Positions 27,159 through 45,974 are shown, counted from the first letter of the stretch. The stretch is DNA of 64,000 nucleotides from Actinomycetes bacterium (GCA_035275125.1 DATENJ010000477.1:106-64105); one strand, 5' to 3'. The notes: generated from the sequence alone by a model not told the origin. Translations and numbers: made by a program.

Positions 27159-27437
27159 GCCCGTTCCCTTCCTCGGGGGAGATCGACCAGTTGCCCAGTG
27201 CTGATCGCCGTCAACTCTGATGCTTGCTCGGTTCGTCGTCAAGTCCCTAACTACGCTTCTGGCAACGGCCCTCCAACGATGCTGGGGCAGCCGCCTCGAA
27301 GCAGTCGTGACCTGCAGGTTCTGCGAGTGGTAGGCTGGCGCCGGTCGTCGGCCGGGCGCTGTCGCTAAGTACCTTGTGACGGTGTCGCGGTCGACGGTCG
27401 GACGCCGTCTGGCAGCGCACCGGGAGCGATAGATCGC

Positions 27438-28286: not shown

Positions 28287-28306
28287 CGTCCCTTCTGAAC
28301 CCGGAG

Positions 28307-28549
28307 GTGGTCCCAACGAGCGAGCCTACCGTCGAAACCCTCGAAGTTCTCGCCCGGGAACTGGGTATCTCGGTCGCCCGGGAGCGACTCGCACGGGCCG
28401 CCGAGGCGCATGCCCGCCTGCGCCCGATGCTGCGGCAGTTCCGGGAGGTGAAGTTCGACTACCTGGACGGGGTTCAGCCCGCGCATGCCAGGCGCTGGAT
28501 CGAGAACGGAGGGCGCTCGGTTCCACACGCACCGCAAGCGCCGTCGTGA
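28307..28549 (+). CDS. small AtzG-like (DUF4089-like) protein, putative partner of the downstream amidase; start codon uncertain
   Basis: ~80-aa helical ORF (LEVLARELGISVARERLARAAEAHARLRPMLRQFREVKFDYLDGVQPAHARRW). Its TGA stop overlaps the amidase GTG start (GTGA). Confidence 0.5.
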   Translation: MVPTSEPTVETLEVLARELGISVARERLARAAEAHARLRPMLRQFREVKFDYLDGVQPAHARRWIENGGRSVPHAPQAPS

Positions 28550-29970
28550 CCGGGCTCGCCGACCTCGGAGCCGGCGAGCTGCTGGAGCTCTACCGCCGGC
28601 GGGAGGCCTCGCCTGAGGAGGTCGCCGAGGCCTGTGCCGCGCGGATCGAGCAGCTGGAGCCAGCGCTCAACGCCGTCACGACGCGCTGCCCTGAGGTCTG
28701 GTCCAGGCAGGCGGCGGAGGCAACCCGCCGGTGGCGCAGCGGCGAGGCCCGGCCTCTGGAGGGTGTCCCCTACGGCGTCAAGGACCTGATCCACACCGCC
28801 GGCGTGCGCACCACGGGCGGGTCCCGCCGTTACCGTGACTACGTTCCCGAGACAGGCGCCGAGGCCGTCGACCGGCTCGAGCGGGCTGGCGGCGTGATGA
28901 TGGCCAAGCTCCACACGTTCGAGTTCGCCAGGGGCGATGACAGCTTCCTCGGGCCCACGCGCAACCCCTGGGACCTGGAGCGGACCGCCGGCGCCTCCTC
29001 CACTGGCGCGGGCGCGGTCCTGGCGGCTCGGCAGCTGCCGCTGGCGCTGGCGACCGACACCGGCGGCTCCATCCGGGTCCCCGCCACCTTCTGCGGCGTC
29101 ACCGGCCTGAAGCCAACCTTCGGGCTCGTTCCCCGGACCGGCGTGATGCCCCAATCCTGGACCTTGGACCACGTCGGGCCGATGGGCCGCTCGGTCGCCG
29201 ACGTCGCCCGAATGCTGACCGCGATCGCCGGCTACGACCCGGCGGACCCCGAGTCGATCCGGACACCGCGCCGCGACTTCGTCGAGGGACTCGACCGAGG
29301 GGTCGCCGGCCTCCGCCTTGGCATCCCTCGCGACTGGTTCTTCGACGTCATCGACCCGGAGGCACTGCAAGCGACGCAACGGGCCGCCTCCCTGCTGGCC
29401 GGGCAGGGCGCGGACGTGGTCGAGGTCGACCTTCCCCACGCCCACCTCTCCGACGTCATCGGTGCCCTCATCATCTACGCGGAGTTCGCCGCCCTCCACA
29501 CCGACGACCTCGACCGACTGGAAGAGTTCGGGACGCGCTGGACACAGCAGGTACTGGTGGACTCCCACTTCGTCGGCGCCGCCGACTACCTCAGGGCCCT
29601 GCGGGCGCGGCACCTGATCCAGCGCGACCTCGAGCAGGCCTTCGAGCAGGCGGACGTGCTCCTGGTTCCTGGCACGGTGGGGGTGGCGCCTCGACTGGAG
29701 GACCTCGCCTTCTCGGTCGGGGACGCCGTCCGGGAATGGGACCAGCACGTGGCACGGATGACACTGCTGTTCAACCTTGCCGGCGTGCCCGCCCTGGCGC
29801 TCCCGGCGGGCTTCAGTAGCGGTGGGCTGCCATTGGGGATCCAGGTCGCCGCCCGACCGTTCGACGAGGCGACCTGCCTCCGGGTAGGCCACACCCTGCA
29901 GCGATGCACCACCTACCACCTGGCGGTTCCGCCCCTCGTCTCGGGCCAGGACGGTATGCGGTCGGGCTAG
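28546..29970 (+). CDS. amidase-signature family amidase (AtzE-like 1-carboxybiuret hydrolase-type architecture)
   Basis: GASSTGAGAVLAA, GTDTGGSIRVPAT, and GVKDLI; ~60 % identical to the amidase at 19273-20676. Confidence 0.85.
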   Translation: MTGLADLGAGELLELYRRREASPEEVAEACAARIEQLEPALNAVTTRCPEVWSRQAAEATRRWRSGEARPLEGVPYGVKDLIHTAGVRTTGGSRRYRDYVPETGAEAVDRLERAGGVMMAKLHTFEFARGDDSFLGPTRNPWDLERTAGASSTGAGAVLAARQLPLALATDTGGSIRVPATFCGVTGLKPTFGLVPRTGVMPQSWTLDHVGPMGRSVADVARMLTAIAGYDPADPESIRTPRRDFVEGLDRGVAGLRLGIPRDWFFDVIDPEALQATQRAASLLAGQGADVVEVDLPHAHLSDVIGALIIYAEFAALHTDDLDRLEEFGTRWTQQVLVDSHFVGAADYLRALRARHLIQRDLEQAFEQADVLLVPGTVGVAPRLEDLAFSVGDAVREWDQHVARMTLLFNLAGVPALALPAGFSSGGLPLGIQVAARPFDEATCLRVGHTLQRCTTYHLAVPPLVSGQDGMRSG

Positions 29971-31001
29971 ATGAGGTCGCCTCTGGTTCGCGGGTCGATG
30001 AGGAACTGCAGGACGTCCATGAACACATAGACCGTGAGCGCGAAGATGGCCACGAACATGACGCAGCCGGCGACCGCCAGGTAGTCCGAGTTCACCACCG
30101 ACTCGACCGCGAACTGGCCCAGCCCGCCCCAGGAGAAGACCGTCTCGACCAGCACTGCCGCGCTGATCAGGTAGCCGTACACCAGGCCGGACAGGGTGAT
30201 CACCGGTAGCAGTGCGTTCCGCAGGGCGCCACGGTTGATCCGCCGGACCGGCATCCCGCAGGCGCGCGCGTACCGCACATAGTCCGAGTCCAGCGCCTCC
30301 ATGGTCTGGGTCCGGGTCATCTTCAGCAATGGCGCGGCGTAGACGAACGCGAGCGTGACCCCGGGCAGGATCAGGTGCCCGAAGGCGGAGCGGAACGCGG
30401 CCCAGTTCCCCGTGAGCACCGAGTCCAGGGTGTAGACCCCGGTGATCGTGGTGGGCGCCCCGATCAGCACGTCGATGCGACCGAGGGGAGCCGGCGCGAT
30501 CCCGAGGGTGACGAAGAACACCAGGATCAGCATCAGGCCCCACCAGAACTCGGGCAGCGCCCCCGCGACCATCCCGTAGACGAACGGGATGCGCTTGAAC
30601 AGGCGCCCGCGCGACACCGCCGAGAGGATGCCGAGCGGGACGGCGACCGCGATGGCGATGACGAACGCGAAGGTGATGAGCTCGAAGGTGGCCGTGAAAC
30701 GGCGCAGCACCTCGTCCAGCACCGGCTTGCTGGTGAAGTACGAGCGTCCGAGGTCCCCTTGCAGCACGTTGCCGAGGTACTTGACGTAGCGGACGTGGAT
30801 CGGCTGGTCGAGGCCGAGGCTCTGCACTAGGGCCGCTCTGGTCTCGTCGGAGGCGAGCCCGCCCGCCAGCAGGTAGGTGGGGTCGCCGGGGAGAAGCTGG
30901 ATCAGGACGAAGACGATCGTCACGATGCCCCAGACCTGGACCAGCAGGATGCCGAGGCGGCGCAGCACGAAGCGCAGCTTCCAGCCTATCGGGACGACCA
31001 C
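29967..31001 (-). CDS. ABC transporter permease (DppB type) - distal gene of the third ABC operon
   Basis: GTG start with GGGAGGTGG upstream; typical DppB N-terminus KLRFVLRRLGILLVQ. Confidence 0.8.
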   Translation of the reverse strand: MVVPIGWKLRFVLRRLGILLVQVWGIVTIVFVLIQLLPGDPTYLLAGGLASDETRAALVQSLGLDQPIHVRYVKYLGNVLQGDLGRSYFTSKPVLDEVLRRFTATFELITFAFVIAIAVAVPLGILSAVSRGRLFKRIPFVYGMVAGALPEFWWGLMLILVFFVTLGIAPAPLGRIDVLIGAPTTITGVYTLDSVLTGNWAAFRSAFGHLILPGVTLAFVYAAPLLKMTRTQTMEALDSDYVRYARACGMPVRRINRGALRNALLPVITLSGLVYGYLISAAVLVETVFSWGGLGQFAVESVVNSDYLAVAGCVMFVAIFALTVYVFMDVLQFLIDPRTRGDLI

Positions 31002-33016
31002 GACGCCACCTCCCGTGTGGACTGGCAGACGAGGTTGCCGTGCTCGTCGGCGTGTGCCGTCCAACCCTCGAGCAGCAGGAAGCTGGAGTCGACCTCCTCG
31101 ATCACGCACGGGTGGTCGATCCTCGTCCCAGGCTCGAGGCGATCCCGGTCGTACACCGGGACCTCGCGGTCGAGGAAGGCGATCCTCCGTGACCCCTTGG
31201 GGACGGGTTCCGCCCCGGAGTGGCGGCTAGACGGGGGCTGCAGCCGCAGCGTGGGCACGGTCCCAACGGCGGTCACCCGCACGTTGACCACCTCCGCCGG
31301 GTCCCCCAGCCGCGTCCCGTAGCGCAGCTCGTGCAGCCGCTCGAACTCGCGGTAGACCGAGGCCGGGTCGAGCGGCGAGCCCTCCGCGACCGGCACCGGG
31401 ACCTCGGTCGACTGCCCGACGTAGCGAACGTCGAGCAGCCGCTCGAACTCCACCTCGCCGACCGACGCCTCCTCGCCCTGGAGGAAGGCGCTGGCGGCCT
31501 GGCCGAGCTCCTGGAACTGCTTGCCCAGGTCGGCCGCGGAGACGGCCGTGAGCAGGCTGAGCAGCGTCTGGCTGGCGGTGTTCCTGAGATCCGCCGTGAG
31601 GAGGCCGAACGCTGACAGCACGCTCTGGTTCGGCGGCACCAGCACGCGGCGGATGCCGACCTCCTCGGCGACCGCCACCGCGAACTGACCGCCCGCGCCC
31701 CCGTAGCAGATCAGCGTGAAGTCGCGCGGGTCGATCCCCCGTTTCACGGTCGCCTCGAGGATGGCCTGCGCCATGTTCGCGTTGAGCAGCCGGAAGACAC
31801 CGAGGGCGGCCTGCTCGACGCTCACGCCGAAGTGCGCCGCGATCGGTTCGAGCGCCTCGCGGGAGCGCCCTGGGACCACGCGCAACCGGCCGCCGAGGAA
31901 GTTGCCCGGGTCGAGGATGCCGAGCACGAGGTTGGCGTCGGTGGCGGTCGGCGCCGTGCCGCCCCGGTCGTAGCAGGCGGGGCCGGGGTCCGCGCCGGCG
32001 CTCTGGGGGCCAACGCGGAGGGTCCCTCCCTCGTCGACCCAGGCGATGCTGCCACCGCCCGCGCCGACCGAGGCCACGTCGATGCCCTGGGTGCGGGCCG
32101 GGATCCCCCACTCGACCTCGACCTCGTCGCGCATCTCGGGCTCGCCGTCCCTGAGCACGCAGATGTCGCAGCTCGTCCCGCCGACGTCCATCGTGATGAG
32201 GTCGCCGATCCCGCTCCTCCGCCCGATGAACTGGCTGGCCAGGACGCCCGCCGCCGGGCCCGAGGCGATCAGGATGATGGGGTGCGCCCTCGCCTCCCCC
32301 GACGGGACGATCCCGCCGCCGGAATGCATGTACCTCACCGGCACCCCGAGGACCCCGGCCAGGCGTTCGATGTACCCACGGGTCCGTGGCATCGCATAGG
32401 CGTTCAGCACCGTCGTGCTCGTCCGCTGGTACTCGCGGATGCGGGGGTCGACGTCGGACGAGAGCGAGATCGCCAGCTCCGCTGAGATCGAGCGGGCGAT
32501 CTGCCCGATCGCGCGCTCGTGCTCGCCGTTGGCATAGGCGTTGAACAGGCACACGGCGAGCGCCTCGACGCCGTCGGCGAGCAGCGCCCGGACCGCGTCC
32601 TCGACGCCGCGCTCGTCCAGCGGCTCGAGCACGTTGCCGTCCATGTCGATCCGCTCGTCGACCTCTCTGACCAGGTACCTGGGCACGAACGGTCGGGGCT
32701 TGTCCCACTGGAGGTTGTACAGCTGGTTCCGGTAGACGCGGCCGATCTCCAGCACGTCACGGAACCCCCGCGTCGTGAGCAGTCCCACCTTGGCCCCGGT
32801 TCTGGTGAGGACCAGGTTGGTGACGAGGGTGGTCGCGTGCATGAACGAGGAGATGCGGCCGAAGTCGACCCCGCCCTGGCGGCACGCCTCGAGCAGGCCC
32901 TCCTCGGGGGCCGAGGGAACGGTCCGGACCTTGGTCCGGCGCAGGTCTCCCGAGGCCTCGTCGTAGACGACCAGGTCGGTGAACGTCCCCCCGATGTCGA
33001 CCCCCACCCGCTGCAT
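30986..33016 (-). CDS. hydantoinase/oxoprolinase family, A subunit (HyuA-like)
   Basis: MQRVGVDIGGTFTDLV N-terminus and Hydantoinase_A family along the full length; RBS GGGAGGAA. Confidence 0.9.
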   Translation of the reverse strand: MQRVGVDIGGTFTDLVVYDEASGDLRRTKVRTVPSAPEEGLLEACRQGGVDFGRISSFMHATTLVTNLVLTRTGAKVGLLTTRGFRDVLEIGRVYRNQLYNLQWDKPRPFVPRYLVREVDERIDMDGNVLEPLDERGVEDAVRALLADGVEALAVCLFNAYANGEHERAIGQIARSISAELAISLSSDVDPRIREYQRTSTTVLNAYAMPRTRGYIERLAGVLGVPVRYMHSGGGIVPSGEARAHPIILIASGPAAGVLASQFIGRRSGIGDLITMDVGGTSCDICVLRDGEPEMRDEVEVEWGIPARTQGIDVASVGAGGGSIAWVDEGGTLRVGPQSAGADPGPACYDRGGTAPTATDANLVLGILDPGNFLGGRLRVVPGRSREALEPIAAHFGVSVEQAALGVFRLLNANMAQAILEATVKRGIDPRDFTLICYGGAGGQFAVAVAEEVGIRRVLVPPNQSVLSAFGLLTADLRNTASQTLLSLLTAVSAADLGKQFQELGQAASAFLQGEEASVGEVEFERLLDVRYVGQSTEVPVPVAEGSPLDPASVYREFERLHELRYGTRLGDPAEVVNVRVTAVGTVPTLRLQPPSSRHSGAEPVPKGSRRIAFLDREVPVYDRDRLEPGTRIDHPCVIEEVDSSFLLLEGWTAHADEHGNLVCQSTREVASWSSR

Positions 33017-33039
33017 GCCGTTCCTCCCCGACGCCGTGG

Positions 33040-34389
33040 TCACCGCAGCTCGTCGCGGTGCGCCTGCAGGAACCGCGTGATGGTCGAGATCGTGTGCTCG
33101 ATGTCCTCGTCGCTGTGCGCGGCCGAGATGTAGCCCTTGTTCGTCTTGATGGGCAGGACGAAGACGTTGTTGTTGAGGAGGGTGCGCCGGAAGGCGACGT
33201 CCTTGGGATGCCCGCCGCGGACCGACACCAGCTGGATGATGTCCCTGAAGGAGCGCACGTTGCGGGTGAAGTACAGGCACCATGCCGAGCCGAACTGCGC
33301 GAAGCTGGCGTCGATGCCGAGCTCGTCGATCACCGCCCGGATCTCCTTGGCCATCCACTCCCCCTGACGGAACAGCCGGGCATGGACCTGCTCGTCCCGC
33401 AGGATCCTGATGGTCGTCAGCGCCGCGGTGACGCCGAGGAGATGCCCCATGAAGGTCCCGGAGATGAACACCGGGCCCTCGGGGCTGAACAGCGACATGA
33501 CGTCGCGCCTGCCGGCGACCGCGCTGATCGGATAGCCGTTCGCCATCGCCTTGCCGAACACGGCCAGGTCCGGCGTCACCCCGAGCAGGCTCTGGGCGCC
33601 GCCGAGGCTGTGCCGGAAGCCGGTGATGATCTCGTCGAAGATCAGGAGGATCCCGAGCTCGTCGCAGAGGGCGCGCAGCAGCACCAGGAAGTCCTTGTCA
33701 ACGATGAGGCAGCCGGCGCTGTGGCAGACGGGCTCGATCACCACCGCCGCCAGGCGGTCGGCCTCGCGCCTGATGAGGCGCTCGGTCGCCTCCGGGTCGT
33801 TGAACGGCGCCACCACGATCTGGTCGATCGTCTCCTGGAGGGAACCGACCGACGCGGGAACCGTGGCCGGCGCGTCGGCGGGCCCGGCCTCCTCCGGCCG
33901 GGGCTTGACGCTGGCCGCCAGGTAGTCGTGCCACCCGTGGTACCCGCCCTCGAACTTGAGCAGCTTCGTCCTTCCGGTGTAGGCGCGGGCGAGGCGGACG
34001 GCGTTGTAGACCGCGTCGGATCCGCCGCCACCGCACAGCGCGGTCATGTCGGCGCAGGGGACCAGCTCGGTGAACAGGCGGGCGAGCTCGACCTCTTTCG
34101 GGTGGGGCGCGGTGAACAGCACCCCGTCGTTGGTCAGGGTGTCGATCACCGCGGCGCGGACCCTGGGGTCGTTGTGGCCCAGGAGGGCGGGCCCGGCCGC
34201 CCCCCAGTAGTCGATGAACTCGTTGTCGTCGACGTCCCAGATGCGGGAGCCCCCGGCCCGGCGGATGAACAGCGGGTACGGCTCGTACCAACGCCCGTCG
34301 CCCTGGACGCCGCCGGGGGAGCTGGCACGGGCCGTCTCCAGCAGCCGCCGCGACCGCTCGGTGGGGATCGTGAGCTCAACGTCGATCAT
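33040..34389 (-). CDS. class III pyridoxal-phosphate aminotransferase (omega-aminotransferase / GSA-aminomutase-like)
   Basis: AT-III fold with PLP lysine in VFGKAMANGYP; start MIDVEL overlaps the HyuB stop by 14 nt. Confidence 0.85.
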   Translation of the reverse strand: MIDVELTIPTERSRRLLETARASSPGGVQGDGRWYEPYPLFIRRAGGSRIWDVDDNEFIDYWGAAGPALLGHNDPRVRAAVIDTLTNDGVLFTAPHPKEVELARLFTELVPCADMTALCGGGGSDAVYNAVRLARAYTGRTKLLKFEGGYHGWHDYLAASVKPRPEEAGPADAPATVPASVGSLQETIDQIVVAPFNDPEATERLIRREADRLAAVVIEPVCHSAGCLIVDKDFLVLLRALCDELGILLIFDEIITGFRHSLGGAQSLLGVTPDLAVFGKAMANGYPISAVAGRRDVMSLFSPEGPVFISGTFMGHLLGVTAALTTIRILRDEQVHARLFRQGEWMAKEIRAVIDELGIDASFAQFGSAWCLYFTRNVRSFRDIIQLVSVRGGHPKDVAFRRTLLNNNVFVLPIKTNKGYISAAHSDEDIEHTISTITRFLQAHRDELR

Positions 34390-36181
34390 CGCTCGCCTCC
34401 AGTTCCTGGTCGTCGGCTCGGCCGGCCCGGTCCCGCTGCTGGTCCCGACGGAGCGCCTCGGTCTCGGCGACCGCCACCCGCCCGTCCCGGTCGAGCCGCA
34501 CGCCGTAGTCGTCGCCGGCGCTGGCCCTCGACACGTAGCCGTCGCGGACGTCCCGTTCGACCAGGGACGGGTCCCGCCGCAGAGGGTCCCCGTAGCCGCC
34601 TCCTCCCCCCTCGGTGACCTCGAGCACGTCGCCGGCCTGGAGCGGCAGGAGGGAGAACTTGCTCGGCGATCTGGTGTCGAAGAGCCGCTGGATGTCGTGG
34701 CGCTGGCCGTCCCGCACGACGCTGAAGTCGTTGGGCGTCCCGGCGTGCCCTCCCTCCAGCCCCCACGGCGGGATGACGTGGCGGTCGGCGCAGGCGGTGA
34801 CCAGCGCCGGCCGGAGCAGCTGGAGCCGGCGCGTGGCTCCGAGGCCGCCCCGGTGGGCACCCGGTCCCGCGGAGTCGGTGTTCATGCCGTAGCCGAGGAA
34901 GCGGACCGGGTAGCGGGTCTCCCAGACCTCCATGGACTCGTTCTTGGCGTTCGCGATGATCGGCCAGTCGACGTTGTTGCCGTCCTTGTTCGGCCGGGCG
35001 CCGGTCCCGCCCGGCTCGAACAGGTACATGAGGAACTCCTCGTTGGTCTCGGGATCCACGCCGGAGGCGGTCAGGTTGTTGCCGGTGCCGAGCGACCCCG
35101 CGGGGACACGGTCGGGCGCCATCCCACGGAGCGCCCTGAGGATCGCCTCGCACGTCTTGATGCAGGTGTCGGCCCAGCTGAAGGTCGGCGCCGGGTAGAC
35201 CGGCCGCACCAGCGTCCCCGGCGTCGCCCGGATCTCGATGAGGTCGATGACCCCGGAGTTCATGTCGATCATGGGGTCGATCACCGCCGCCAGGGCGACG
35301 AAGCAGGCCGACCGGGTGCCGCTGAAGGTGCAGTTGACCGGGCCAAGGACCTGGCGGTCGGTCCCGGTCAGGTCCACCACCAGCGACGACCCGTCCTTGA
35401 TGACCTTCACGCGGATGGTGTGGGGCCCGCCGCCGTGGCCGTCGTCCTCGATGACCTCGGTGGCCGCGTACTCGCCGTCCGGGAAGTCCTCGAGAAACCT
35501 GGTGAAGCGCCGCCGCGAGTACTCCAGCGCGGCCTCCATGCCGAGCAGGAGGCGGTCGAGCCCGTACTTGCCGGCGAGCTCACGGACCCGGCGCTCGGCG
35601 ACGATGTTGGAGGCGAGCTGCGCCTGGAGGTCTCCCCAGCACTGCCGGGCCATGCGGACGTTCTTGAGGATGAACTCCTGGATCTCGCGGTTGAGCTCGC
35701 CGGCGCGGTACAGCTTCGCCGGCGGGATGATCAGGCCCTCCTGCACCACGTGGTCGACCGTCCCCGACCAGCCGCCCGGCGACATCCCGCCGATGTCCGA
35801 CCAGTGGCCGCGGTTCACGGCGAAGCCCACGTGACGGTCGGCCACGAACATCGGGCAGGCCACCACCACGTCGGCCTGATGGTTCGCGCCGTCGTACGGG
35901 TCGTTGAACACGATGACGTCGCCGGGCTCGAAGGACGGGTAGGCCCTGATGATCGTCTCGACGGCGTCGACGAGCGCGCCGGCATGTCCGGGGATCCCGT
36001 AGGCCTGGGCGATCATCCGGCCCCTGGTGTCGAACAGCCCGCAGGTGAAGTCCTCGCCCTCGCTGAAGCACGTCGAGTAGGCCGTCCGGGTGGTGGTGAG
36101 CACCATCTCGTGCATGATCGAGAGCAGGTAGCTCCGGATGATCTCGGCGGTGAACGGGTCGAGCTGCGGTGGCTGGCTCAC
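34376..36181 (-). CDS. hydantoinase/oxoprolinase family, B subunit (HyuB-like)
   Basis: Hydantoinase_B family (DPFTAEIIRSYLLSIMHEM...); GTG start with GAGGAG, overlapping the ATPase stop (GTGA). Confidence 0.9.
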   Translation of the reverse strand: MSQPPQLDPFTAEIIRSYLLSIMHEMVLTTTRTAYSTCFSEGEDFTCGLFDTRGRMIAQAYGIPGHAGALVDAVETIIRAYPSFEPGDVIVFNDPYDGANHQADVVVACPMFVADRHVGFAVNRGHWSDIGGMSPGGWSGTVDHVVQEGLIIPPAKLYRAGELNREIQEFILKNVRMARQCWGDLQAQLASNIVAERRVRELAGKYGLDRLLLGMEAALEYSRRRFTRFLEDFPDGEYAATEVIEDDGHGGGPHTIRVKVIKDGSSLVVDLTGTDRQVLGPVNCTFSGTRSACFVALAAVIDPMIDMNSGVIDLIEIRATPGTLVRPVYPAPTFSWADTCIKTCEAILRALRGMAPDRVPAGSLGTGNNLTASGVDPETNEEFLMYLFEPGGTGARPNKDGNNVDWPIIANAKNESMEVWETRYPVRFLGYGMNTDSAGPGAHRGGLGATRRLQLLRPALVTACADRHVIPPWGLEGGHAGTPNDFSVVRDGQRHDIQRLFDTRSPSKFSLLPLQAGDVLEVTEGGGGGYGDPLRRDPSLVERDVRDGYVSRASAGDDYGVRLDRDGRVAVAETEALRRDQQRDRAGRADDQELEASDDRR

Positions 36182-37143: not shown

Positions 37144-38114
37144 TCCCCCACCCTTTCCTGATGGTGGCAGCTCACGTCGCGGTCGGGCTCGACCTCCAGG
37201 AGCGCCGGCGCCGCCTCCCGGCACGTCTGGTCGGCGAGCGGGCATCGCGTCGAGTAGGCGCACCCGTCGCGGGCGGGTGGTGGGACGGACCGTCGCTGGG
37301 CGGCCGCCGGCAACGCCTCCCCGGTCCCGAACCGCGACGAGTGGAGGAGGCGGATGGTGTACGGGTGCCGCGGCTCGTCGAACACGCGCTCCACCGGGCC
37401 GACCTCGACGATCCTGCCGGCGTACAGCACCGCGATCCGGTCGCAGTAGTTCGCGGCGATCCCCAGGTCCCGGGTGATCAGGAGGGCCGATGCACCCAGC
37501 TCCTCGACCTGCTGGCGCAGGAGGTCGAGGATCTGGGTCTGGATGGTGACGTCCAGCCCCATGGTGGGCTCGTCCGCCACCAGGACCTTCGGCTCGTTGA
37601 TGGTCGCCATGGCGATCAGGACCCGCTGGGCCATCCCGCCGCTGAGCTCGTGCGGGTAGGCGCGGAGCCGTTCCTCCGGGTCGGGAATCGCGACCTTCGT
37701 CAGCATCTCCAGGGCTCGCCGGCGGGCGTCCTTCAGCGAGACGTCGTGGTGCCCGCGGTAGACCTCCGCGACCTGGTCCCCGACCCGGAGCAGGGGGTTG
37801 AGGTGCGCCCGGGCGTTCTGCACGATCAGCGCCAGGTCGCGCCCCCGGATGGTGCGCAGCTCCTCCTCGCGCCTGGACAGCAGGTCCCGGCCCTCAAGCA
37901 CCACCCGGCCGGCGACGATCTGTCCGGGGGACGGCAACAGCCCGAGGACGCTCCAGGCGACGATCGACTTCCCCGACCCGCTCTCCCCGATGAGCCCGAG
38001 GGTCTCGCCGGGTCGCAGCTGCAGCGTGACGCCGTCGAGGGCCCGGGCCCGACGGCCGCGGGCCTGGAACTCGACGCTCAGGTCCTGGATCTCGAGGATC
38101 GCCTCCCGCGACAC
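37116..38114 (-). CDS. ABC transporter ATP-binding protein (DppD type)
   Basis: GESGSGKSI, LSGGMAQR, LVADEPTMGLD. Confidence 0.9.
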   Translation of the reverse strand: MSREAILEIQDLSVEFQARGRRARALDGVTLQLRPGETLGLIGESGSGKSIVAWSVLGLLPSPGQIVAGRVVLEGRDLLSRREEELRTIRGRDLALIVQNARAHLNPLLRVGDQVAEVYRGHHDVSLKDARRRALEMLTKVAIPDPEERLRAYPHELSGGMAQRVLIAMATINEPKVLVADEPTMGLDVTIQTQILDLLRQQVEELGASALLITRDLGIAANYCDRIAVLYAGRIVEVGPVERVFDEPRHPYTIRLLHSSRFGTGEALPAAAQRRSVPPPARDGCAYSTRCPLADQTCREAAPALLEVEPDRDVSCHHQERVGEWSSFESTT

Positions 38115-39065
38115 CTAGACCCTCCGGCGGCGCGGGTCGGTGACCTCCGCCAGGGAGTCGCCGATGAGACCGAACCCCAGGACGGTGATCGACAGCATGA
38201 GACCGGGGAACACCGAGGGCCACCAGATGCCGCCCTCCATCAGGCTCGAGGTGCCGACGGCGATCATCGACCCCCACTCCGGGGTCGGAACCCGGACCCC
38301 CGCCCCGACGAAGCTGAGCCCGGCCGTGAGCAGCATCGCCGTTCCCACGGTGACCGAGCTCATGGCGAAGATCGGCCCCGACGAGTTCGGGAGCAGGTGC
38401 CGGAAGACGATGCCGCGGTCCGAGGATCCCGACGCCTTGGCCGCCTCCATGAACAGCCGCTGCTTCACATAGACCGCCTGGCTGCGGACGAGGCGCGCGT
38501 ACACCGGTGCGTTGACGACCGCGATCGCGAGCACGACGTTCTCGATGCGCTGCCCGGTGAGGACCACCAGGGCCATCCCGAGGACGAACACGGGGAACGA
38601 CTGGATGAGGTCGGCGACCCGCATCGCCGACTCGCTCCAGCGATTCGTGTAGTAGCCGGCGACAACGCCGATCGGCGTCCCGATCGCGATCGCCAGCAGG
38701 GTCGCGGTGACGGCGATGGTGAGGTCGATCCGCGGCGCGTAGATCAGCCGGGAGAAGATGTCCATCCCGCTCTTGTCGGTGCCGAGGAGGTAGGTCGCGT
38801 TCGGCGGCAGCAGCTCGTCGCCCGGATGGGCGGTCTGCGGGTCGAACCGCGCCAGCAGAGGAGCGAACGCCGCCAGCAGCAGCACCACGGCGACGATCGC
38901 GAGCCCGGTCGCCAGCCGCGGGTTGGCCCGCACGATCCGCCACAGGCGATGCAGGCGAGCCCGCCAGTCCCTTGGTGGAACGAAGGTGAACGCCTCGCCG
39001 GGAGGGACGTCGCTCAGCGAGGACACGTCATCCTCCGAGGGCTTCCCCGGCCAGCGGTCGTTCAA
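38115..39065 (-). CDS. ABC transporter permease (DppC type)
   Basis: BPD_transp_1 core; the N-terminus may start later, at the VSSLSD GTG. Confidence 0.85.
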   Translation of the reverse strand: MNDRWPGKPSEDDVSSLSDVPPGEAFTFVPPRDWRARLHRLWRIVRANPRLATGLAIVAVVLLLAAFAPLLARFDPQTAHPGDELLPPNATYLLGTDKSGMDIFSRLIYAPRIDLTIAVTATLLAIAIGTPIGVVAGYYTNRWSESAMRVADLIQSFPVFVLGMALVVLTGQRIENVVLAIAVVNAPVYARLVRSQAVYVKQRLFMEAAKASGSSDRGIVFRHLLPNSSGPIFAMSSVTVGTAMLLTAGLSFVGAGVRVPTPEWGSMIAVGTSSLMEGGIWWPSVFPGLMLSITVLGFGLIGDSLAEVTDPRRRRV

Positions 39066-39933
39066 CGGTCGCTTCCTCGATCCGGTAGAACTCGTCCATC
39101 CCGATCAGATCCTCGATCTCCTTGCGAATCTCGATCGCCTCACCTTGGGGGAGCACCGGGCTGCCAACGTCGCGGAGCGACCGGTAGGCGTCGCGGGCGA
39201 CCTTGTACGACAGCAGCAGGGCCGCCATCGCCTCCACGACCATCTTGTAGCCCATGTCCTCGAGCTCGCGGACGGTCAGGACGGGCCGCCCGACCCGGTT
39301 CCCCAGGCTGTTGACGTATACCACCGGCCCGTCCACATCACGAGGAAACTTCGCCGCCTGGTCCAGGTCGTCCGGGAAGGCCATCACGAGGTCGGCCCCC
39401 GCCCCGAACAGGGCGTTGGCCCGCCTGACCCCCTCGTTGTAGCCCTCGGTGCGGATCGCGTCGGTCCGGGCGATGAGGACGAAGTCCGGGTCGGCCTCCC
39501 GGCGCGCCCGGTCGGCCATCCGGATCTTGGCCAGCAGGTCGTCGAGCGGGATCGTGTGCTCGATGTAGTCGCGGTGGTAGTGCGCCCGCTTCGGGAAGTG
39601 CTGGTCCTCGATGTGCACCCCCGAGACCCCACCCCAGATGAGCTCCCGGACGGCCCGCATCGTGTGCATGGCCTCCCCGAACCCGCCGTCTCCGTCGACG
39701 ACCAGGGGCGTGTCGATCCTGCGGGCGATCTGGCTGGACGCCTCCACGAGCTCGATCATGCTCGTGAGCGGCTCGGTGACGCAGGTCGAGCAGCCGAGCG
39801 CGTAGCCGCCGAGATAGACGACGGGGAACCCGAGCTGCTCCACGACCCGCGCGGTCAGGGCGTTGATGCAGACGGGCGCCACGATGAGCCCCGGCCTCGC
39901 CAGCGCCTCCCTCAGAGCCTGCCGTTGCTTCAC
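39028..39933 (-). CDS. isocitrate lyase / PEP mutase superfamily enzyme (2-methylisocitrate lyase / oxaloacetate decarboxylase-like)
   Basis: ICL/PEPM TIM-barrel motifs (ARVVEQLGFPVVYLGGYAL, DGDGGFG, HIEDQ); GTG start with GGGAGGGAG. Confidence 0.75.
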   Translation of the reverse strand: MKQRQALREALARPGLIVAPVCINALTARVVEQLGFPVVYLGGYALGCSTCVTEPLTSMIELVEASSQIARRIDTPLVVDGDGGFGEAMHTMRAVRELIWGGVSGVHIEDQHFPKRAHYHRDYIEHTIPLDDLLAKIRMADRARREADPDFVLIARTDAIRTEGYNEGVRRANALFGAGADLVMAFPDDLDQAAKFPRDVDGPVVYVNSLGNRVGRPVLTVRELEDMGYKMVVEAMAALLLSYKVARDAYRSLRDVGSPVLPQGEAIEIRKEIEDLIGMDEFYRIEEATVERPLAGEALGG

Positions 39934-39976
39934 GTTCGCTCCCTCCCTTGCGTCGACCGACCATCCACCGTCCCGC

Positions 39977-41392
39977 TCAGCAGCCAGGCCCCTCGAGGAT
40001 CCGGCGGGAGATGCGTCGCCTGACGAGCCGTCCCGAGGCCTGGACACCGGTCGCCTTGCGGTCCCGCACCAGGACCCGCCCGCGCAGGATCGTCGTCACC
40101 GGCCAGCCCACCACCTCCCATCCCTCCCAGGGGCTGTAGTCGGAGACATGGAAGTCCTCACGGGTCAGGGTCATGCGGAGCTCCGGGTCGATGATCGCCA
40201 GGTCGGCGTCGCTGCCGGGGGCGATCACCCCCTTGGTGGGGTAGAGGCCGAAGATCCTCGCGGCGTTCGAGGAGGTGAGCTCGACGAAGCGCTCCAGGCG
40301 CATGCCCCGCTTCACCACGCCCTCGGAGTACATGACGCCCATGCGGGCCTCGGCGCCGAGGTTGCCGCCGGTGAGGTTGTCGATCCGCTCACCGCGGAGC
40401 TTCACCTCCAGCGACGTCGGCATCTCGTCGGTGGCGACGGTGGAGAGCACCCCGCTCGCCGCGGCCTGCCACAGCGCCTCCTGGTCGTCGGCGGTCTTGA
40501 GCGACGGGTAGGTGTGGTAGCAGAAGCCTCGCGGGCTGCGGTACTCCTCCGCGGTCCGGCAGAGGTAGTGGTGCAGCGTCTCGCCGTACACCGGGAGGCC
40601 CCGCCCGCGGCTGTCCGCGAGCACCTCCACCGCCTGCCTTGTGGATGCGTGCACGAAGTAGACGGCGGCCTCCTTGGCCCGCGCCACGGCCACGGTCTGC
40701 TGGAAGGCGAGCTCCTCGGCGAGGTGGGAGCGGACCTCGTGGATGTTCCACCCCGCCATCCGGTCGTCGCGCAGGGACTGTTCGTAGTTGCACTGCACGG
40801 TGTCCTCGTCCTCGGCATGCACCGCCAGGATGCCGCCCTCGGCGGCCAGCTGGCCCAGGAGCAGCGCTATCCGTCCGTAGTCGAGCCGGAACGACTTCCT
40901 GGTGTTCACGGTGAAGGCCTTGAAGCTGGGGAACCCGTCCTGCACCAGCTCGGGAACCTGGTCGAACACGTCCAGCGGTTGTGGGCCGAGCAGGCCGATG
41001 TGGAACCCGTAGTCGGTGTGCGACCGGCCGTCCCAGCGCTGGCACCGCCGTTGCAGCTCCTCATGCAGGTCCTCGCCGGCGTGGACGAAGCAGAAGTCGA
41101 GGTGGGTGGTCACGCCGCCGTGGACCATCCCGACCGTGTCGTCCTCCGGGCCGAGGGAGTAGTAGTCGAGCTCGGGATGCTGGGCGATGTACATGTCCTG
41201 GTGGGCGTGCGGTTCGATGCCGCCGGGAACGACCACCATGCCGGAGGCGTCGACGACGCCGGCGTCGGCGTCGTCGAGCGCCCCCGGGGAGGCGACCACG
41301 GCGATCGTCTCCCCGCGCACCCCGAGGTCCCAGTTGCCGGCGCCCTCGGGGGTGACGACGTGCCCACCACGGATGACGAGATCGAGAGCTAT
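39977..41392 (-). CDS. D-hydantoinase / dihydropyrimidinase-type cyclic amidohydrolase; start codon anomalous (probable 1-nt indel in the first ~10 codons)
   Basis: PGGIEPHAHQ metal-binding motif, carboxylated-lysine region SFKAF, and the conserved N-terminal beta-strand LDLVIRGGHVVTPEG. No ATG/GTG/TTG lies in frame between the upstream TGA and this strand; an ATG sits one frame off just upstream. Confidence 0.75.
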   Translation of the reverse strand: MALDLVIRGGHVVTPEGAGNWDLGVRGETIAVVASPGALDDADAGVVDASGMVVVPGGIEPHAHQDMYIAQHPELDYYSLGPEDDTVGMVHGGVTTHLDFCFVHAGEDLHEELQRRCQRWDGRSHTDYGFHIGLLGPQPLDVFDQVPELVQDGFPSFKAFTVNTRKSFRLDYGRIALLLGQLAAEGGILAVHAEDEDTVQCNYEQSLRDDRMAGWNIHEVRSHLAEELAFQQTVAVARAKEAAVYFVHASTRQAVEVLADSRGRGLPVYGETLHHYLCRTAEEYRSPRGFCYHTYPSLKTADDQEALWQAAASGVLSTVATDEMPTSLEVKLRGERIDNLTGGNLGAEARMGVMYSEGVVKRGMRLERFVELTSSNAARIFGLYPTKGVIAPGSDADLAIIDPELRMTLTREDFHVSDYSPWEGWEVVGWPVTTILRGRVLVRDRKATGVQASGRLVRRRISRRILEGPGC

Positions 41393-41437
41393 CGCTGCTC
41401 ATCCCTTCGGGTTCGGGAGCGCTGCGTCTCCGGTGGG

Positions 41438-43069
41438 CTAGGTCTTCCTGGAGAAGCTTGCGAACCGAAGGAAGTTGTTGGTCTGCCAGACGTATCCGCC
41501 CATGCTGCTCAGATGGGGGAAGTTGTTGCCCACGTGGAGGTAGAAGCCCCACGGGGCGTCCCCCACGAGGCGCTGGTTCGCCTCCCGGGCGAGCTTCGTC
41601 CGCTCGGCGGGGTCCGGGCTGGCCAGGCCCCGGTCGATCAGGTCGGTGACGGTGGCGTCGTTGTACTTCACCCAGTTGGCCGGGCCGATGCCCTCGTCGG
41701 GATGGAAGTACAGCCCTAGGACGTACGGCCCGTCCGGCGTGAACGGCGTGTCGTTGACCAGGACCATCTGGGCCTCGCGCTTGAAGTACTGCTCGAAGTA
41801 CTTGGCCGGGCTCAGCTTCTGCAGCTGGACGTCGATACCCACGTCGCGCAGGGCGGTCTGGATGAGGATCGCGACCTCCTCGTCGACCGCCTGGGCGGTG
41901 TTGAAGGACAGCTGCACCTTCGGGTTCTGGACGCCGGCCTCCTGCAGCAGCTGACGCGCCCGGTCCGGGTTGTTGCCGTACGGCCAGTCGTCGAGGGCTC
42001 CGGGATAGCCGCCGGGAATGTAGCCGGGCGCCGGCCCGACACCCTGGGCCTTCAGGAACACGGTGCTGACGATCTCGTCGACCGGGAGGGCGTAGGCCAC
42101 CGCCTGGCGCACCTTGGGGTTGTCGAGCGGCGGCATGCCGTTGTTGAGGCCGAGGATGAGACCGGCGCTCCCCTTCCTCGACTCGACCACGACGGCCTTG
42201 TTGCCCCGGAGCTCCTCGAGCTGCCGTGGCGTGAGGTCGACGGCCGCGTCGACCTCACCTCGTCCCAGCAGGGAGGCGCGGGACGACGCCTCGGGGATGG
42301 CCTTCACGATGATCTTCTGGATGGTGAGCGGCCCCTTGAAGTAGTTGGGGTTGGCGACCCAGACGGTCTCCTGCCCAGGGGTGAACGTCTCCACGTGGTA
42401 GGCCCCGAAGCTTGCCGTGTGGGTCGCCATCCAGTCCTTGGCCCACTTGTCGCTGTCGGTCGCGTGCTTCTTGACCTCGGTCGAGTCGTAGATCGTGCAG
42501 ATCGGGATCGTCGCCATTGCCAGCGGGAGGATCGGATTCGGCTTGGTGAGGTTGATGTCGAACGTGTAGGTGTCGACGACCGAGACCGGGTCCTCCTTGT
42601 CGACCGAGCTCACGCCCATCACGAAGCCGCACAGCCCGTCGAGTCCGAGGCTGCGCTCGAACAGGTACTTCACGTCGGCGGAGGTGAGCTCGTTGCCGAA
42701 GTAGCTCTTGACGCCCTTGCGGAGGGTGAAGCGGAAGCTCAGGCCGTCGTCGGCCCGCTCGTAGGACTCGGCGAGGAAGGGCTCGGGCGCCTTCGAGACG
42801 TCGACGTCCACCGTCCCGTCCTCGTTGGTCTTAGTTGGCAGCTGCACCAGGGGATCGGCGTAGTTGAGCCCGGCCTCGAGGTTCTGCGGCTGGTTCCCGA
42901 CGAACTCCGAGTCGAGTGAGGTGGGGGTCGCGGCCTCGGCGATCACGAGGGTCGACCCTCGACTGCTCCCGCCGTTGCTGTCCTCACTCTTGGACGTGCA
43001 GGCCCCGAGCACCACCACCAGGACGGCGAGACCTGCGACCAGTCGCCTGCGCGCCCATGTCCCATCCAT
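41438..43069 (-). CDS. ABC transporter substrate-binding lipoprotein, family 5 - SBP3
   Basis: Signal peptide and lipobox LGACTS, SBP_bac_5 fold; RBS GAGGAAGGGG. Confidence 0.9.
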   Translation of the reverse strand: MDGTWARRRLVAGLAVLVVVLGACTSKSEDSNGGSSRGSTLVIAEAATPTSLDSEFVGNQPQNLEAGLNYADPLVQLPTKTNEDGTVDVDVSKAPEPFLAESYERADDGLSFRFTLRKGVKSYFGNELTSADVKYLFERSLGLDGLCGFVMGVSSVDKEDPVSVVDTYTFDINLTKPNPILPLAMATIPICTIYDSTEVKKHATDSDKWAKDWMATHTASFGAYHVETFTPGQETVWVANPNYFKGPLTIQKIIVKAIPEASSRASLLGRGEVDAAVDLTPRQLEELRGNKAVVVESRKGSAGLILGLNNGMPPLDNPKVRQAVAYALPVDEIVSTVFLKAQGVGPAPGYIPGGYPGALDDWPYGNNPDRARQLLQEAGVQNPKVQLSFNTAQAVDEEVAILIQTALRDVGIDVQLQKLSPAKYFEQYFKREAQMVLVNDTPFTPDGPYVLGLYFHPDEGIGPANWVKYNDATVTDLIDRGLASPDPAERTKLAREANQRLVGDAPWGFYLHVGNNFPHLSSMGGYVWQTNNFLRFASFSRKT

Positions 43070-43089
43070 GCGATGACCCCTTCCTCGGA

Positions 43090-43140
43090 GGCCCGGCGTC
43101 GCTGTACCAGATTTGATATATCCTATAGATGGACGCCTGG
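43090..43140 (-). promoter_or_regulatory. AT-rich promoter/operator region of the SBP3 operon (TTGACC -35-like; GATATATC palindrome; TGTACCAG...CCTGGTCA inverted repeat, candidate GntR operator)
   Basis: The only AT-rich stretch in this 115-bp intergenic region; it lies between the GntR gene and the SBP3 start. Confidence 0.4.
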
Positions 43141-43185
43141 TCAAGGATGGCGGATCGGACCGAAGGGACCACCGGAGCGGTGGTG

Positions 43186-43938
43186 CTAGCGCGAGCCCTC
43201 GCGCAGGTGGCTGACCACCGAGAAGCGCCCGCTGAGAATGTGCGCCCGCATGCGCTCCCCCGCCTCGTCCGCGTCCTGGGCCCGGATCGCCTCGAGGATC
43301 CCCTCGTGCTCGTCCATCGACTTGCAGGCACGGTCGGGGATGAGCCAGATGTCCCAGGGGAACCAGGCCCACAGCTTCTGAATCATGAAGTGCAGGTACT
43401 TCGAGGCGGAGGCGGCATAGATCGTGTGATGCCAGCGCGCGTTGAGCTCGGGGACCTCTCGCAGGTCGTTGGCATCGACTCCGCGCTTCATGGCGGCGTG
43501 GAGGCCCTCAAGGAACTGGACGTGCTCCGGGGTGAGCTTGGGCACGGCCTGCCGGGTGGCCTGCGACTCGAGCATCGAGCGGATCTCGTAGATCTCGAGT
43601 GCGTCCTCGGCCGTGAACTCGGTGACCCGCACCTCGCGATGGCTCTCCATCGACACCAGGCCCTCGGTGGCCAGGATGCGCAGCGCCTCCCTGATCGGCG
43701 TCGCGCTCACACCCAGATCCTCGATCAGCTCCGAGAACCTGAGCCGTTGCCCGCGCTTGATCCGCCCGCTCGCGATCGCTTGCCGCAACGAATCGGCCGC
43801 CAGCTCGGCCTTGGTCTTGTAGCGGTCCATCGGGCGCGCGCCGAAGCCCGACCCGAACAACCCGGCATCGGCCAGCATCTCCGGGGCGACCTGCCGCGGG
43901 ACGTTGGCACCCTGATCGGGCATCAGTCGATCGGACAT
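43186..43938 (-). CDS. GntR-family transcriptional regulator (FadR-type FCD C-terminal domain)
   Basis: GntR HTH (GQRLRFSELIEDLGVSATPIREALRILATEGLV) followed by a helical FCD domain. Confidence 0.85.
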   Translation of the reverse strand: MSDRLMPDQGANVPRQVAPEMLADAGLFGSGFGARPMDRYKTKAELAADSLRQAIASGRIKRGQRLRFSELIEDLGVSATPIREALRILATEGLVSMESHREVRVTEFTAEDALEIYEIRSMLESQATRQAVPKLTPEHVQFLEGLHAAMKRGVDANDLREVPELNARWHHTIYAASASKYLHFMIQKLWAWFPWDIWLIPDRACKSMDEHEGILEAIRAQDADEAGERMRAHILSGRFSVVSHLREGSR

Positions 43939-44081
43939 CGGTCTTGTCCCCGTTGTGATTTCGTATATGTTCGAACATAACACCGCCCCGCGGTGACGTC
44001 CACAACCTCGGGTCGAGGTCATCAGTCAGGCCAGCGCGAAGCCGGCCAGTCGGCGGGCTCCCTCGAGGGGGTCGGCGGAGC

Positions 44082-45919: not shown

Positions 45920-45974
45920 GGCCTCACTCCTTGGTGATGGCGTTGCGGCCTGCTCAGGATGGTGTTGGCTGGCC

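Follow-up and report, generated by a model that had tools for sequence, protein, structure and literature searches.

A conserved gene cassette combining HyuA- and HyuB-type subunits, a GSAM-like aminotransferase and a family-5 ABC importer in an Actinomycetes bacterium

Few ATP-dependent lactamases are known, and every one characterised so far has brought a new route to light, be it for caprolactam, valerolactam, N-methylpyrrolidone, creatinine or 5-oxoproline; such enzymes are in demand, too, as mild biocatalysts for opening the very stable 5- to 7-membered lactams. The action of a lactamase and then an aminotransferase is established for caprolactam (PMC6061476, PMC8453981), and for N-methylpyrrolidone a HyuAB-type amidohydrolase followed by amine removal has been listed (PMC6987047). 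Here we analysed a 64-kb stretch of DNA from an Actinomycetes bacterium (GCA_035275125.1, DATENJ010000477.1:106-64105; at its full length, the window), with a GC content of ~70% throughout, in which a minus-strand gene string at positions 29967-43938 brings together a HyuA/HyuB pair, a class-III aminotransferase (AT) resembling glutamate-1-semialdehyde aminomutase (GSAM) and a peptide-type ATP-binding cassette (ABC) importer. On balance, we lean towards reading this cassette as a GntR/FCD-controlled ten-gene catabolic operon for the uptake, ATP-dependent ring opening and transamination of a small cyclic amide (lactam or hydantoin-like).

Gene content and conservation of the cassette

A Pfam search found 11 genes in 29967-43938, all on the minus strand, and its annotation agrees with the original prediction for every gene in content, strand and order; the string runs from the best ATG of gntR (43938) to the stop codon of dppB (29967), the same ends that had been predicted. 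With start codons picked by Shine-Dalgarno context and match to family N-termini, the string starts with a GntR+FCD regulator (43186..43938, 250 aa from the ATG at 43938; GntR 59 bits, FCD 96 bits). It continues with a family-5 (Dpp/Opp/opine-type) substrate-binding protein (SBP) lipoprotein (41438..43069, 543 aa; SBP_bac_5 252 bits), a dihydropyrimidinase/hydantoinase-like (DHT-like) cyclic amidohydrolase (39977..41392, frame open from 41398; Amidohydro_1), a protein of a Cys-less subfamily of the phosphoenolpyruvate (PEP) mutase/isocitrate lyase (ICL) superfamily, here termed PEPM-like (39028..39933, 301 aa; PEP_mutase 119 bits), a DppC-type permease (38115..39026; OppC_N and BPD_transp_1), and DppD- and DppF-type ATPases (37116..38114 and 36178..37143, each with ABC_tran and oligo_HPY). 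These are followed by the HyuB-type subunit (34376..36181, 601 aa; Hydantoinase_B 547 bits, full length), the class-III, GSAM-like pyridoxal phosphate AT (33040..34389, 449 aa; Aminotran_3 186 bits), the HyuA-type subunit, an ASKHA ATPase (30986..33016, 676 aa; Hydant_A_N 177, Hydantoinase_A 303 and Hydant_A_C 28 bits, full length) and, at the 3' end of the operon, a DppB-type permease (29967..31001; BPD_transp_1_N and BPD_transp_1).

The ten genes from sbp to dppB are co-directional, with a maximum gap of 45 nt and four overlaps. Gaps of 45 nt (sbp/DHT-like), 43 nt (DHT-like/PEPM-like) and 1 nt (PEPM-like/dppC) are followed by the abutting dppC and dppD (0 nt) and by overlaps of 28 nt (dppD/dppF), 4 nt (dppF/hyuB) and 14 nt (hyuB/AT), and hyuA overlaps dppB by 16 nt. 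Overlaps of 14-25 nt had been claimed for both junctions of hyuB, AT and hyuA; the hyuB/AT overlap holds, but the one between AT and hyuA is wrong, because the hyuA ATG at 33016, which is preceded by a Shine-Dalgarno sequence, lies 23 nt past the AT stop, and the orthologous loci also have a gap here (24-70 nt). The displacement of dppB to the far end of the string was likewise confirmed, and its position is kept in the orthologous cassettes. The family-5 importer set is complete, with SBP_bac_5, two BPD_transp_1 permeases and two ABC_tran+oligo_HPY ATPases; Walker A motifs are present in DppD (GESGSGKS, together with LSGG) and DppF (GESGSGKT). The SBP begins with MDGTWARRRLVAGLAVLVVVLGAC, a lipoprotein signal peptide with an LGAC lipobox, and its nearest solved structures, all at ~100 bits, are the peptide SBP 8upi, the agropinic-acid SBP AgaA (6hlx), HbpA and GsiB/YliB.

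Orthologous loci were reached via contigs encoding protein-level relatives of the AT. Three other contigs repeat this gene set and its odd arrangement (SBP, DHT-like, PEPM-like, DppC, DppD, DppF, HyuB, AT, HyuA, and DppB where the contig extends so far), one from a Nitrospiraceae metagenome-assembled genome (MAG; L081) and two from assemblies of public sequencing runs (L085 and L086). Their proteins are each 58-78% identical to the window counterparts, with DppC at 72-78% among the orthologues and DppB of L086, in the same position, at 77%. The neighbourhood search proposed earlier, for HyuB-AT-HyuA inside family-5 ABC operons, therefore has a clear outcome, as this arrangement recurs in all three. 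Since these contigs differ in GC (57-60% vs 70% here), the cassette has crossed lineages; since its own composition equals that of the window (GC 0.697 vs 0.698), it is no recent island. The earlier word "island" does not hold, and the idea of a recent genomic island was dropped. In the Nitrospiraceae contig, where no GntR gene is adjacent, phage-integrase and Transposase_20 genes precede the cassette (1-1027 of L081), which suggests that this copy was acquired on a mobile element.

Beyond the full cassette, the AT-HyuA-HyuB triad recurs in permuted orders, and the three identities rise and fall together: AT-hyuA-hyuB in L088 (AT/HyuA/HyuB 63/62/61%), L177 (53/54/56%) and L093 (49/47/47%), and hyuA-hyuB-AT in a Solirubrobacteraceae MAG, L001 (47/48/48%). 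In L177, the triad stands directly after a family-5 ABC transporter in canonical B-C-D-F-SBP order, which is 42-59% identical to that of the window, whereas the further transporters of peptide type that we examined (L171, L175) show 23-47%, and an FCD regulator and an amidase lie nearby. As L177 has the ABC transporter, AT and HyuAB without the DHT-like and PEPM-like genes, the transporter, AT and HyuAB constitute a conserved functional set, and the DHT-like and PEPM-like genes are accessory, having been added in the cassette lineage only. The synteny on which the original prediction had staked itself was found, for the cassette in three contigs and for the triad in further loci. Gene content, catalytic motifs, operon architecture and conservation are all directly visible, and the gene string behaves as one conserved functional unit, not as a chance juxtaposition.

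Two of these loci have further features of their own. Directly downstream of the L177 triad (15239-20143) are genes for a major facilitator superfamily transporter, TcuA, a tartronate-semialdehyde-reductase-like dehydrogenase and an Ldh_2 protein, and upstream are an Iso_dh gene and a weakly PuuE-like Polysacc_deac_1 gene. The TcuA tricarballylate-dehydrogenase passed its equivalog cut-off (571 > 369 bits); these neighbours may point to a tricarboxylate as the end product or may form a tcu unit that has no relation to the triad. In L093, two HyuA/HyuB pairs (4827-8721 and 11329-15132) flank the AT, one ~47% and the other 27-37% identical to that of the window, and a glutathione S-transferase gene follows the ~47%-identical pair. 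Scans of genome and metagenome contigs with the AT alignment gave relatives at <=49% identity among the matches listed, of which L001 and L093 were the only informative loci, and a representative genome set, sampled with the same alignment, held no relative above 47% identity among the matches listed. A plasmid collection searched by tblastn with AT, PEPM-like and HyuA gave nothing above 43% identity, and the plasmid contexts inspected in Natrinema, Streptomyces and Haloferax were uninformative.

Enzymes encoded by the cassette

The Hydantoinase_A-type and Hydantoinase_B-type subunits are encoded together, with only the AT gene between them. Using the HyuA motif and HyuB metal-site definitions of PMC8453981, we found the HyuA ATP motifs DIGGTFTD (7), DVGGT (277) and GADPGP (341), and D44, H101, D104 and H126 of HyuB align with the metal tetrad of CapB, an Asp-His-Asp-His site that is essential in that enzyme (PMC8453981). 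Against solved structures, HyuA scored 459 bits with N-methylhydantoinase, 362 with caprolactamase and 163-248 with carboxylases, and HyuB scored 289, 246 (CapB) and 74-97 bits, respectively. The HyuB/HyuA lengths of 601/676 aa match those of lactamases, whereas acetone carboxylase subunits have 776/717 aa, and the cassette has no open reading frame (ORF) for a third small carboxylase subunit. The caprolactamase equivalogs NF050156 and NF050157 (cut-off 1000 each), the sole hydrolytic HyuAB models in the NCBIfam library used, gave scores below cut-off (CapA 498.6, CapB 281.3), as did the Apc equivalogs (88-257 bits vs cut-offs of 1250-1500). Judged by these comparisons, HyuAB is an intact member of the hydrolytic ATP-dependent lactamase/hydantoinase branch and, with hydrolase scores far above the others, not an acetone/acetophenone carboxylase pair, in line with what had been predicted.

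The class-III assignment of the aminotransferase stands (Aminotran_3 186 bits, Lys280), but a caprolactam-type enzyme it is not, being GSAM-like by NCBIfam and PDB scores. Lys280, in FGKAMANG, is invariant in 33 homologues and aligns with the lysine of the GSAM FGK motif, and the N-terminal, carboxylate-binding Arg33 is conserved. The GSAM models are the best NCBIfam matches and are below the HemL cut-offs (PRK00062 352.6 < 398; TIGR00713 345.5 < 527.3); in the PDB, GSAM (265 bits) is followed by 6K8H (226 bits), a Sphaerobacter omega-transaminase for beta/gamma-amino acids, and further relatives include PctV, D-phenylglycine AT, ForI and beta-phenylalanine ATs. The (Y/F)EAGF motif of GSAM aligns to KTNKGY in the AT, with Glu replaced by Asn417-Lys418 (Asn-Arg in most homologues), and loss of this GSAM Glu is expected of a true transaminase, which has to bind a 2-oxo-acid. 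With the catalytic Lys and the carboxylate-binding Arg kept and the GSAM Glu lost, the AT looks like a working transaminase, and its sequence places it in a GSAM-like clade, not among the caprolactam-type subgroup-II omega-transaminases.

The AT has roughly 7,200 homologues. In a neighbour-joining tree, the cassette ATs form one clade, and HyuAB-linked members are also found on deeper branches. The AT family occurs without HyuAB in other loci, and the AT is therefore not exclusive to lactamases. Two such loci combine the AT with a GntR and a DHT-like gene (L082/L083), and in L084 it lies near a PxpABC-type lactamase, a beta-hydroxyacid dehydrogenase and a PEP_mutase gene. It is also found beside molybdenum hydroxylases (L087, L170), Rieske oxygenases (L169) and an Amidohydro_2 protein (L172), and some relatives without HyuAB stand alone. 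Recurrent neighbours of the family are ring-amide hydrolases (PxpABC-type, Amidohydro_2/3, Polysacc_deac_1) and semialdehyde/tricarboxylate enzymes (NAD_binding_2, TcuA, Iso_dh, PrpD, PEP_mutase), so what these contexts share is a theme, the catabolism of nitrogenous ring compounds, and not one partner.

The DHT-like protein had been called a D-hydantoinase, which holds at the superfamily level but not as such, with a score of 289.2 against a cut-off of 393 for the D-hydantoinase model TIGR02033 (allantoinase 206, dihydroorotase 153). In the PDB it comes closest to D-hydantoinases (~227 bits), with alignments that begin at residue 5-9 of the open frame. The binuclear-metal motifs EPHAHQ, SFKAF, VHAED, FVHAS and ATDE, in which ligands were assigned by motif position from general family knowledge, are present and kept in the orthologues, and an Asn stands where dihydropyrimidinases presumably carry the Tyr of their FMAY motif. 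The codon at 41392 that would serve as start is ATA in the window and in L085 (~2940), ATT in L086 (~2957) and ATG in the Nitrospiraceae contig (2976; MSIDLVVRGG), and the ATA/ATT codons lie 5-10 nt past a Shine-Dalgarno sequence. The first canonical start is the GTG at 41320, and N-terminal homology to D-hydantoinases extends upstream of it; the gene probably uses the near-cognate ATA at 41392. A frameshifted pseudogene, considered because the ATG at 41402 is out of frame, was rejected, since ATA/ATT is the same codon in two other orthologues.

For the PEPM-like protein, the superfamily assignment within the earlier label "ICL/PEPM-family lyase" is upheld (PEP_mutase 119 bits), but "lyase" is not, as the protein is Cys-less and scores 168 against the prpB cut-off of 354. 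The models TIGR02320 (81.6 < 319.6) and TIGR02321 (83.3 < 374.4), for PEP mutase and phosphonopyruvate hydrolase, were not reached either. Its loop EDQHFPKRAHYHRDY aligns to EDQ..PK(K/R)CGH of petal death protein (PDP), oxaloacetate acetylhydrolase (OAH), dimethylmalate lyase (DML) and methylisocitrate lyase (MICL), and in its gating loop, PKRAHYH, the catalytic Cys is replaced by an Ala that is invariant in 4/4 orthologues; this position is Cys in PDP, OAH and DML and Ser in the 1xg3 MICL chain. With Ala for the catalytic Cys in all four orthologues, an ICL-type C-C cleavage step, as first proposed, is not supported. The Mg-binding DGDGGFG and EDQ motifs are present, and a profile of the four orthologues scores roughly the same (95-137 bits) with each of the solved subfamilies, PEP mutase, phosphonopyruvate hydrolase and PA4872 among them. 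A decarboxylase, a hydrolase or another Mg-dependent reaction on an oxo-diacid appears more likely. Phosphonate catabolism, suggested by a PhnR-like GntR match and the PEPM fold, was rejected: none of the models for phnR, PEP mutase and phosphonopyruvate hydrolase comes near its cut-off, and the PEPM-like protein has closer relatives in MICL-like enzymes.

Candidate promoter, proposed pathway and alternatives

The GntR protein reached none of the NCBIfam equivalogs (best, phnR_burk, 115 < 271.5), and a GntR/FCD gene adjoins the cassette in L085 and L086 too, divergently oriented. Upstream of sbp, at 43116..43144 (-), there is a candidate sigma-70-type promoter, TTGACC-N18-TATAT, which contains TATAGGATATA and is overlapped by an AT-rich quasi-palindrome as putative GntR operator. 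The four cassette loci give the consensus TTGAC(C/G), 17-18 nt, TATA(T/C) directly upstream of sbp, with a quasi-palindrome TATA-N3-TATA spanning the -10 region, and in the alignment TTGAC and an ATA block are invariant in 4/4 loci. The motif occurs once in the window, against 0.02 expected, and once each in L081, L085 and L086, always upstream of sbp; as it was derived post hoc from these four loci, the counts are descriptive and no test. A generic consensus promoter scan upstream of sbp made no call, and the motif rests on cross-locus conservation only. It is probably the promoter of the operon and probably includes an operator for the GntR/FCD protein encoded next to it. Nearer to gntR, ~25 nt upstream of its ATG and immediately past a terminator-like hairpin (43995..43981), there is a perfect 14-bp palindrome, TATGTTCGAACATA (~43964-43977, minus strand), which may serve in autoregulation; the adjoining ATATACGA resembles part of the L086 sbp-upstream motif.

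In the pathway that we favour, the FCD regulator would free the promoter once its effector is present, and the lipoprotein SBP and the DppBCDF-type importer would take up the cyclic amide. HyuA would then use ATP to activate the ring amide as a lactim phosphate for hydrolysis at the HyuB metal site, and the GSAM-like AT would pass the freed amino group to a 2-oxo-acid acceptor, leaving an aldehyde or an oxo (di)carboxylate. The DHT-like enzyme might open another ring, of ureide/imide type, or that of a related congener, the PEPM-like enzyme might carry out a Mg-dependent decarboxylation or hydrolysis of an oxo-diacid, with no ICL-type retro-Claisen reaction, and the neighbouring amidase may free more ammonia. 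From the known chemistry of these families and the caprolactam route, we infer all activities, which step follows which, what the regulator does and that the substrate is a lactam. Compared with the original proposal of uptake, ring opening, deamination and C-C cleavage, the first three steps remain the most economical and have the caprolactam precedent, and the fourth falls away.

Hydantoin opening gives an N-carbamoyl product in which the amine is blocked, and lactam opening gives a free amine. As the transaminase stands beside HyuAB in loci without a carbamoylase (L088, L093, L177), a lactam is favoured over a hydantoin as substrate. Several points weigh against the catabolic operon as we read it. 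HyuA is nearest to N-methylhydantoinase, and its higher score there than with caprolactamase keeps a hydantoin/dihydropyrimidine substrate alive, yet an amine blocked by hydantoin opening would call for the carbamoylase that the cassette lacks. All cassette proteins score below the NCBIfam equivalog cut-offs, which rules out assigning an activity by homology, and the AT family is also found without HyuAB at 58-65% identity. The roles given to the DHT-like and PEPM-like proteins are guesses, and both genes are missing from L177, L088, L093 and L001; the amidases near the different loci are not orthologous; and no paper on this gene combination was found in the literature searched.

The strongest competitor, which we regard as possible though clearly less likely, is the use of cyclic ureides (5-substituted hydantoins or dihydropyrimidines), in which the DHT-like protein and HyuAB would be two hydantoinases that complement each other in stereo- or substrate selectivity. 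Decarbamoylation of the N-carbamoyl amino acid would fall to an amidase or some other hydrolase, the AT would deaminate the resulting D- or beta-amino acid, and the PEPM-like protein would decarboxylate an oxaloacetate-type product. The best matches of HyuA and HyuB to N-methylhydantoinase (459 and 289 bits) and of the DHT-like protein to D-hydantoinases/dihydropyrimidinases fit such a scheme, as do the D-phenylglycine and beta-amino-acid ATs among the relatives of the AT and the pairing of a DHT-like gene with GntR and AT, without HyuAB, in L082/L083. An AtzE/allophanate-hydrolase-like amidase moreover abuts the cassette, and an amidase follows dppB in L086, but these amidases are non-orthologous between loci. 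The annotated ORFs of the window, cassette included, yielded no hydantoin racemase and neither a CN-hydrolase nor an intact M20 carbamoylase, L088, L093 and L177 have neither a DHT-like gene nor an evident carbamoylase, and the DHT-like protein itself falls short of the D-hydantoinase model (289 < 393) and has Asn for what we take to be the FMAY Tyr.

The importer and its SBP bear on a doubtful alternative, the catabolism of opine-like compounds or pyroglutamyl/gamma-glutamyl conjugates after the manner of the Agrobacterium agropinic-acid (aga) system, in which an N-substituted 5-oxoproline-type lactam would be imported and opened by HyuAB, and downstream enzymes would split the conjugate. AgaA is the second-best solved relative of the SBP, with the glutathione-binding HbpA and GsiB near the top, but at ~100 bits this similarity is no better than that to generic peptide SBPs. 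HyuAB beside Dpp-type ABC operons is common on rhizobial plasmids, of which one Mesorhizobium example was inspected, and among 794 plasmid records with a HyuA match the commonest genera were Agrobacterium (172) and Rhizobium (127); no plasmid relative exceeded 43% identity, however, and the hosts of the cassette are environmental MAGs (Actinomycetes, Nitrospiraceae), not plant-associated rhizobia. The cassette also has no opine oxidase or dehydrogenase, and an aminotransferase is foreign to the aga scheme.

It is very improbable that the AT turns an amine into a ketone, which HyuAB, as an ATP-dependent carboxylase, then converts to a beta-keto acid. The Hydantoinase_A/B family does include acetone and acetophenone carboxylases, class-III transaminases can turn amines into ketones, and HyuA has sub-threshold matches to the ApcC and ApcA models, but carboxylases score far below hydrolases with both HyuB (74-97 vs 246-289 bits) and HyuA (163-248 vs 362-459 bits), the subunit lengths fit lactamases, and the cassette lacks a gene for a third, small subunit. 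Least probable of all is a peptide ABC operon into which unrelated enzyme genes were inserted, with no common pathway: although the transporter genes are interrupted twice with dppB displaced, further peptide-type ABC operons and amidases crowd the region, and decayed genes adjoin gntR, the exact interrupted order is kept in three contigs of other GC and taxonomy, triad and transporter co-occur and co-vary in identity in L177 in another order, and the enzymes keep their catalytic residues (the PEPM-like protein having Ala for the lyase Cys).

Within the favoured lactam pathway, we tentatively raise a wider possibility, that the GSAM-like AT, its co-evolving HyuAB and a dedicated family-5 importer make up a widespread, unstudied route for natural saturated lactams, e.g., carboxylated 2-piperidones/2-pyrrolidones. 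Such lactams may come from the breakdown of pyridine-carboxylates, piperidine alkaloids or polyamines, and ring opening may give an amino-di-/tricarboxylate that enters tricarboxylate-type chemistry. This would explain the neighbouring PEPM/ICL-like, TcuA and Iso_dh genes, the PrpD fragment, the beta-hydroxyacid dehydrogenases and the Mo-hydroxylases and, if true, would make the PEPM-like protein a new reaction type in its superfamily.

Surroundings and comparison with described systems

The cassette sits in a stretch rich in amide/peptide scavenging genes. An amidase-signature enzyme (28546..29970, plus strand; Amidase 349 bits, AtzE-family 303 < 461 cut-off) is convergent with dppB, the two ends overlapping by 4 nt, and is a paralogue (60% identical) of the amidase at 19273-20676. 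The amidases after dppB in L086 and near the L177 set are only 34-37% identical to that of the window, and because amidases are non-orthologous between loci the flanking gene was downgraded as a conserved member; it is possibly an accessory step, with a weak association. Further away are another SBP_bac_5 gene with its amidase (17499-20676, plus strand), a second complete Dpp-type operon, SBP-DppBCDF, ending in an FmdA/AmdA formamidase/acetamidase (20683-27464, minus strand), and a TrmB-family regulator with the second amidase (27438-29970, plus strand).

On the other side, directly upstream of gntR, an M20 dipeptidase-like gene is split over two frames (44026-45297 and 44082-44609, minus strand), with its N-terminal half matching PRK07907 positions 47-258 and the M20_dimer/C-terminal part in the other frame; it is either a frameshifted pseudogene or an assembly error. 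It is followed by a truncated remnant of a DcuA/DcuB C4-dicarboxylate transporter (45485-45985, minus strand; profile positions 3-79 of 368 only) and by two long ORFs (45766-47181 and 47204-48022) with no Pfam or NCBIfam match. Genes at 48105-52191 encode a signalling module made up of a MASE1-HisKA_3 histidine kinase, a LuxR-type response regulator and, divergently, a STAS/HATPase/GerE protein; nothing evident connects it with the cassette.

That the cassette is shared by Actinomycetes and Nitrospiraceae, both uncultured, suggests a nitrogen source in the environment that has not yet been mapped. The cassette offers a co-evolving lactamase/transaminase pair together with a dedicated binding protein that could be used to fish for the natural substrate, and its accessory DHT-like and Cys-less PEPM/ICL-superfamily proteins have a chemistry that is not predictable from known subfamilies.

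Among described systems, the cassette resembles caprolactam catabolism in Pseudomonas jessenii (CapA/CapB) and the OplBA route for valerolactam in that HyuA/HyuB-family ring opening is followed by a fold-type-I class-III AT. In contrast, no ABC importer genes are interspersed among the Cap genes and other ORFs lie between capAB and the Cap AT, and the present cassette has no 6-oxohexanoate dehydrogenase or beta-oxidation genes and a GSAM-like AT. The N-methylhydantoin amidohydrolase of creatinine degradation is the best solved match of both subunits (7hk5), but the solved enzyme is a fused 1288-aa protein. With NmpA/NmpB of N-methylpyrrolidone degradation the cassette shares HyuAB-type ring opening paired with amine removal (PMC6987047); unlike the creatinine and N-methylpyrrolidone routes, it has no creatinine deaminase, carbamoylsarcosine amidase, sarcosine oxidase or amino-acid oxidase, and a transaminase takes the amine.

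Individual proteins show the same mixture of likeness and difference. The AT shares its fold type, catalytic Lys and N-terminal Arg with HemL and its transaminase offshoots, but it is below the HemL cut-offs and lies in a catabolic operon, not among haem genes. The PEPM-like protein has the PEP_mutase fold and Mg-binding motifs of MICL, PDP, OAH and the PA4872 decarboxylase, but carries KRAHYH for the K(K/R)CGH of MICL, PDP and OAH, and no one subfamily is specifically close. The aga region of Agrobacterium Ti plasmids combines a peptide-type ABC transporter with the HyuA/HyuB homologues AgaF/AgaG. The cassette is like this agropinic-acid system in joining a family-5 importer to a HyuA/HyuB pair for a lactam nutrient, with AgaA among the nearest solved SBPs; unlike the cassette, aga has no AT, DHT-like or PEPM-like genes, and it belongs to other host taxa.

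Classical hyu operons also have a dihydropyrimidinase-family hydantoinase and/or HyuA/HyuB, but here a racemase and a carbamoylase are missing, and an AT, a PEPM-like protein and an interleaved ABC importer are present instead. Neither hydantoin racemase nor carbamoylase was found among the cassette or other annotated window ORFs, where the sole M20 gene is dipeptidase-like and frameshifted; with no racemase, carbamoylase or creatinine-pathway genes in the cassette, the earlier distinction from classical hyu and creatinine clusters is borne out. A GSAM-like transaminase that co-evolves with two lactamase subunits, and is here inserted between them, is not described in the literature searched, and neither are enzyme genes interleaved with transporter genes in this way or the two divergent accessory enzymes. 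All component families, by contrast, are known, and the logic of import, ring opening and deamination has its precedent in the routes for caprolactam, valerolactam and N-methylpyrrolidone.

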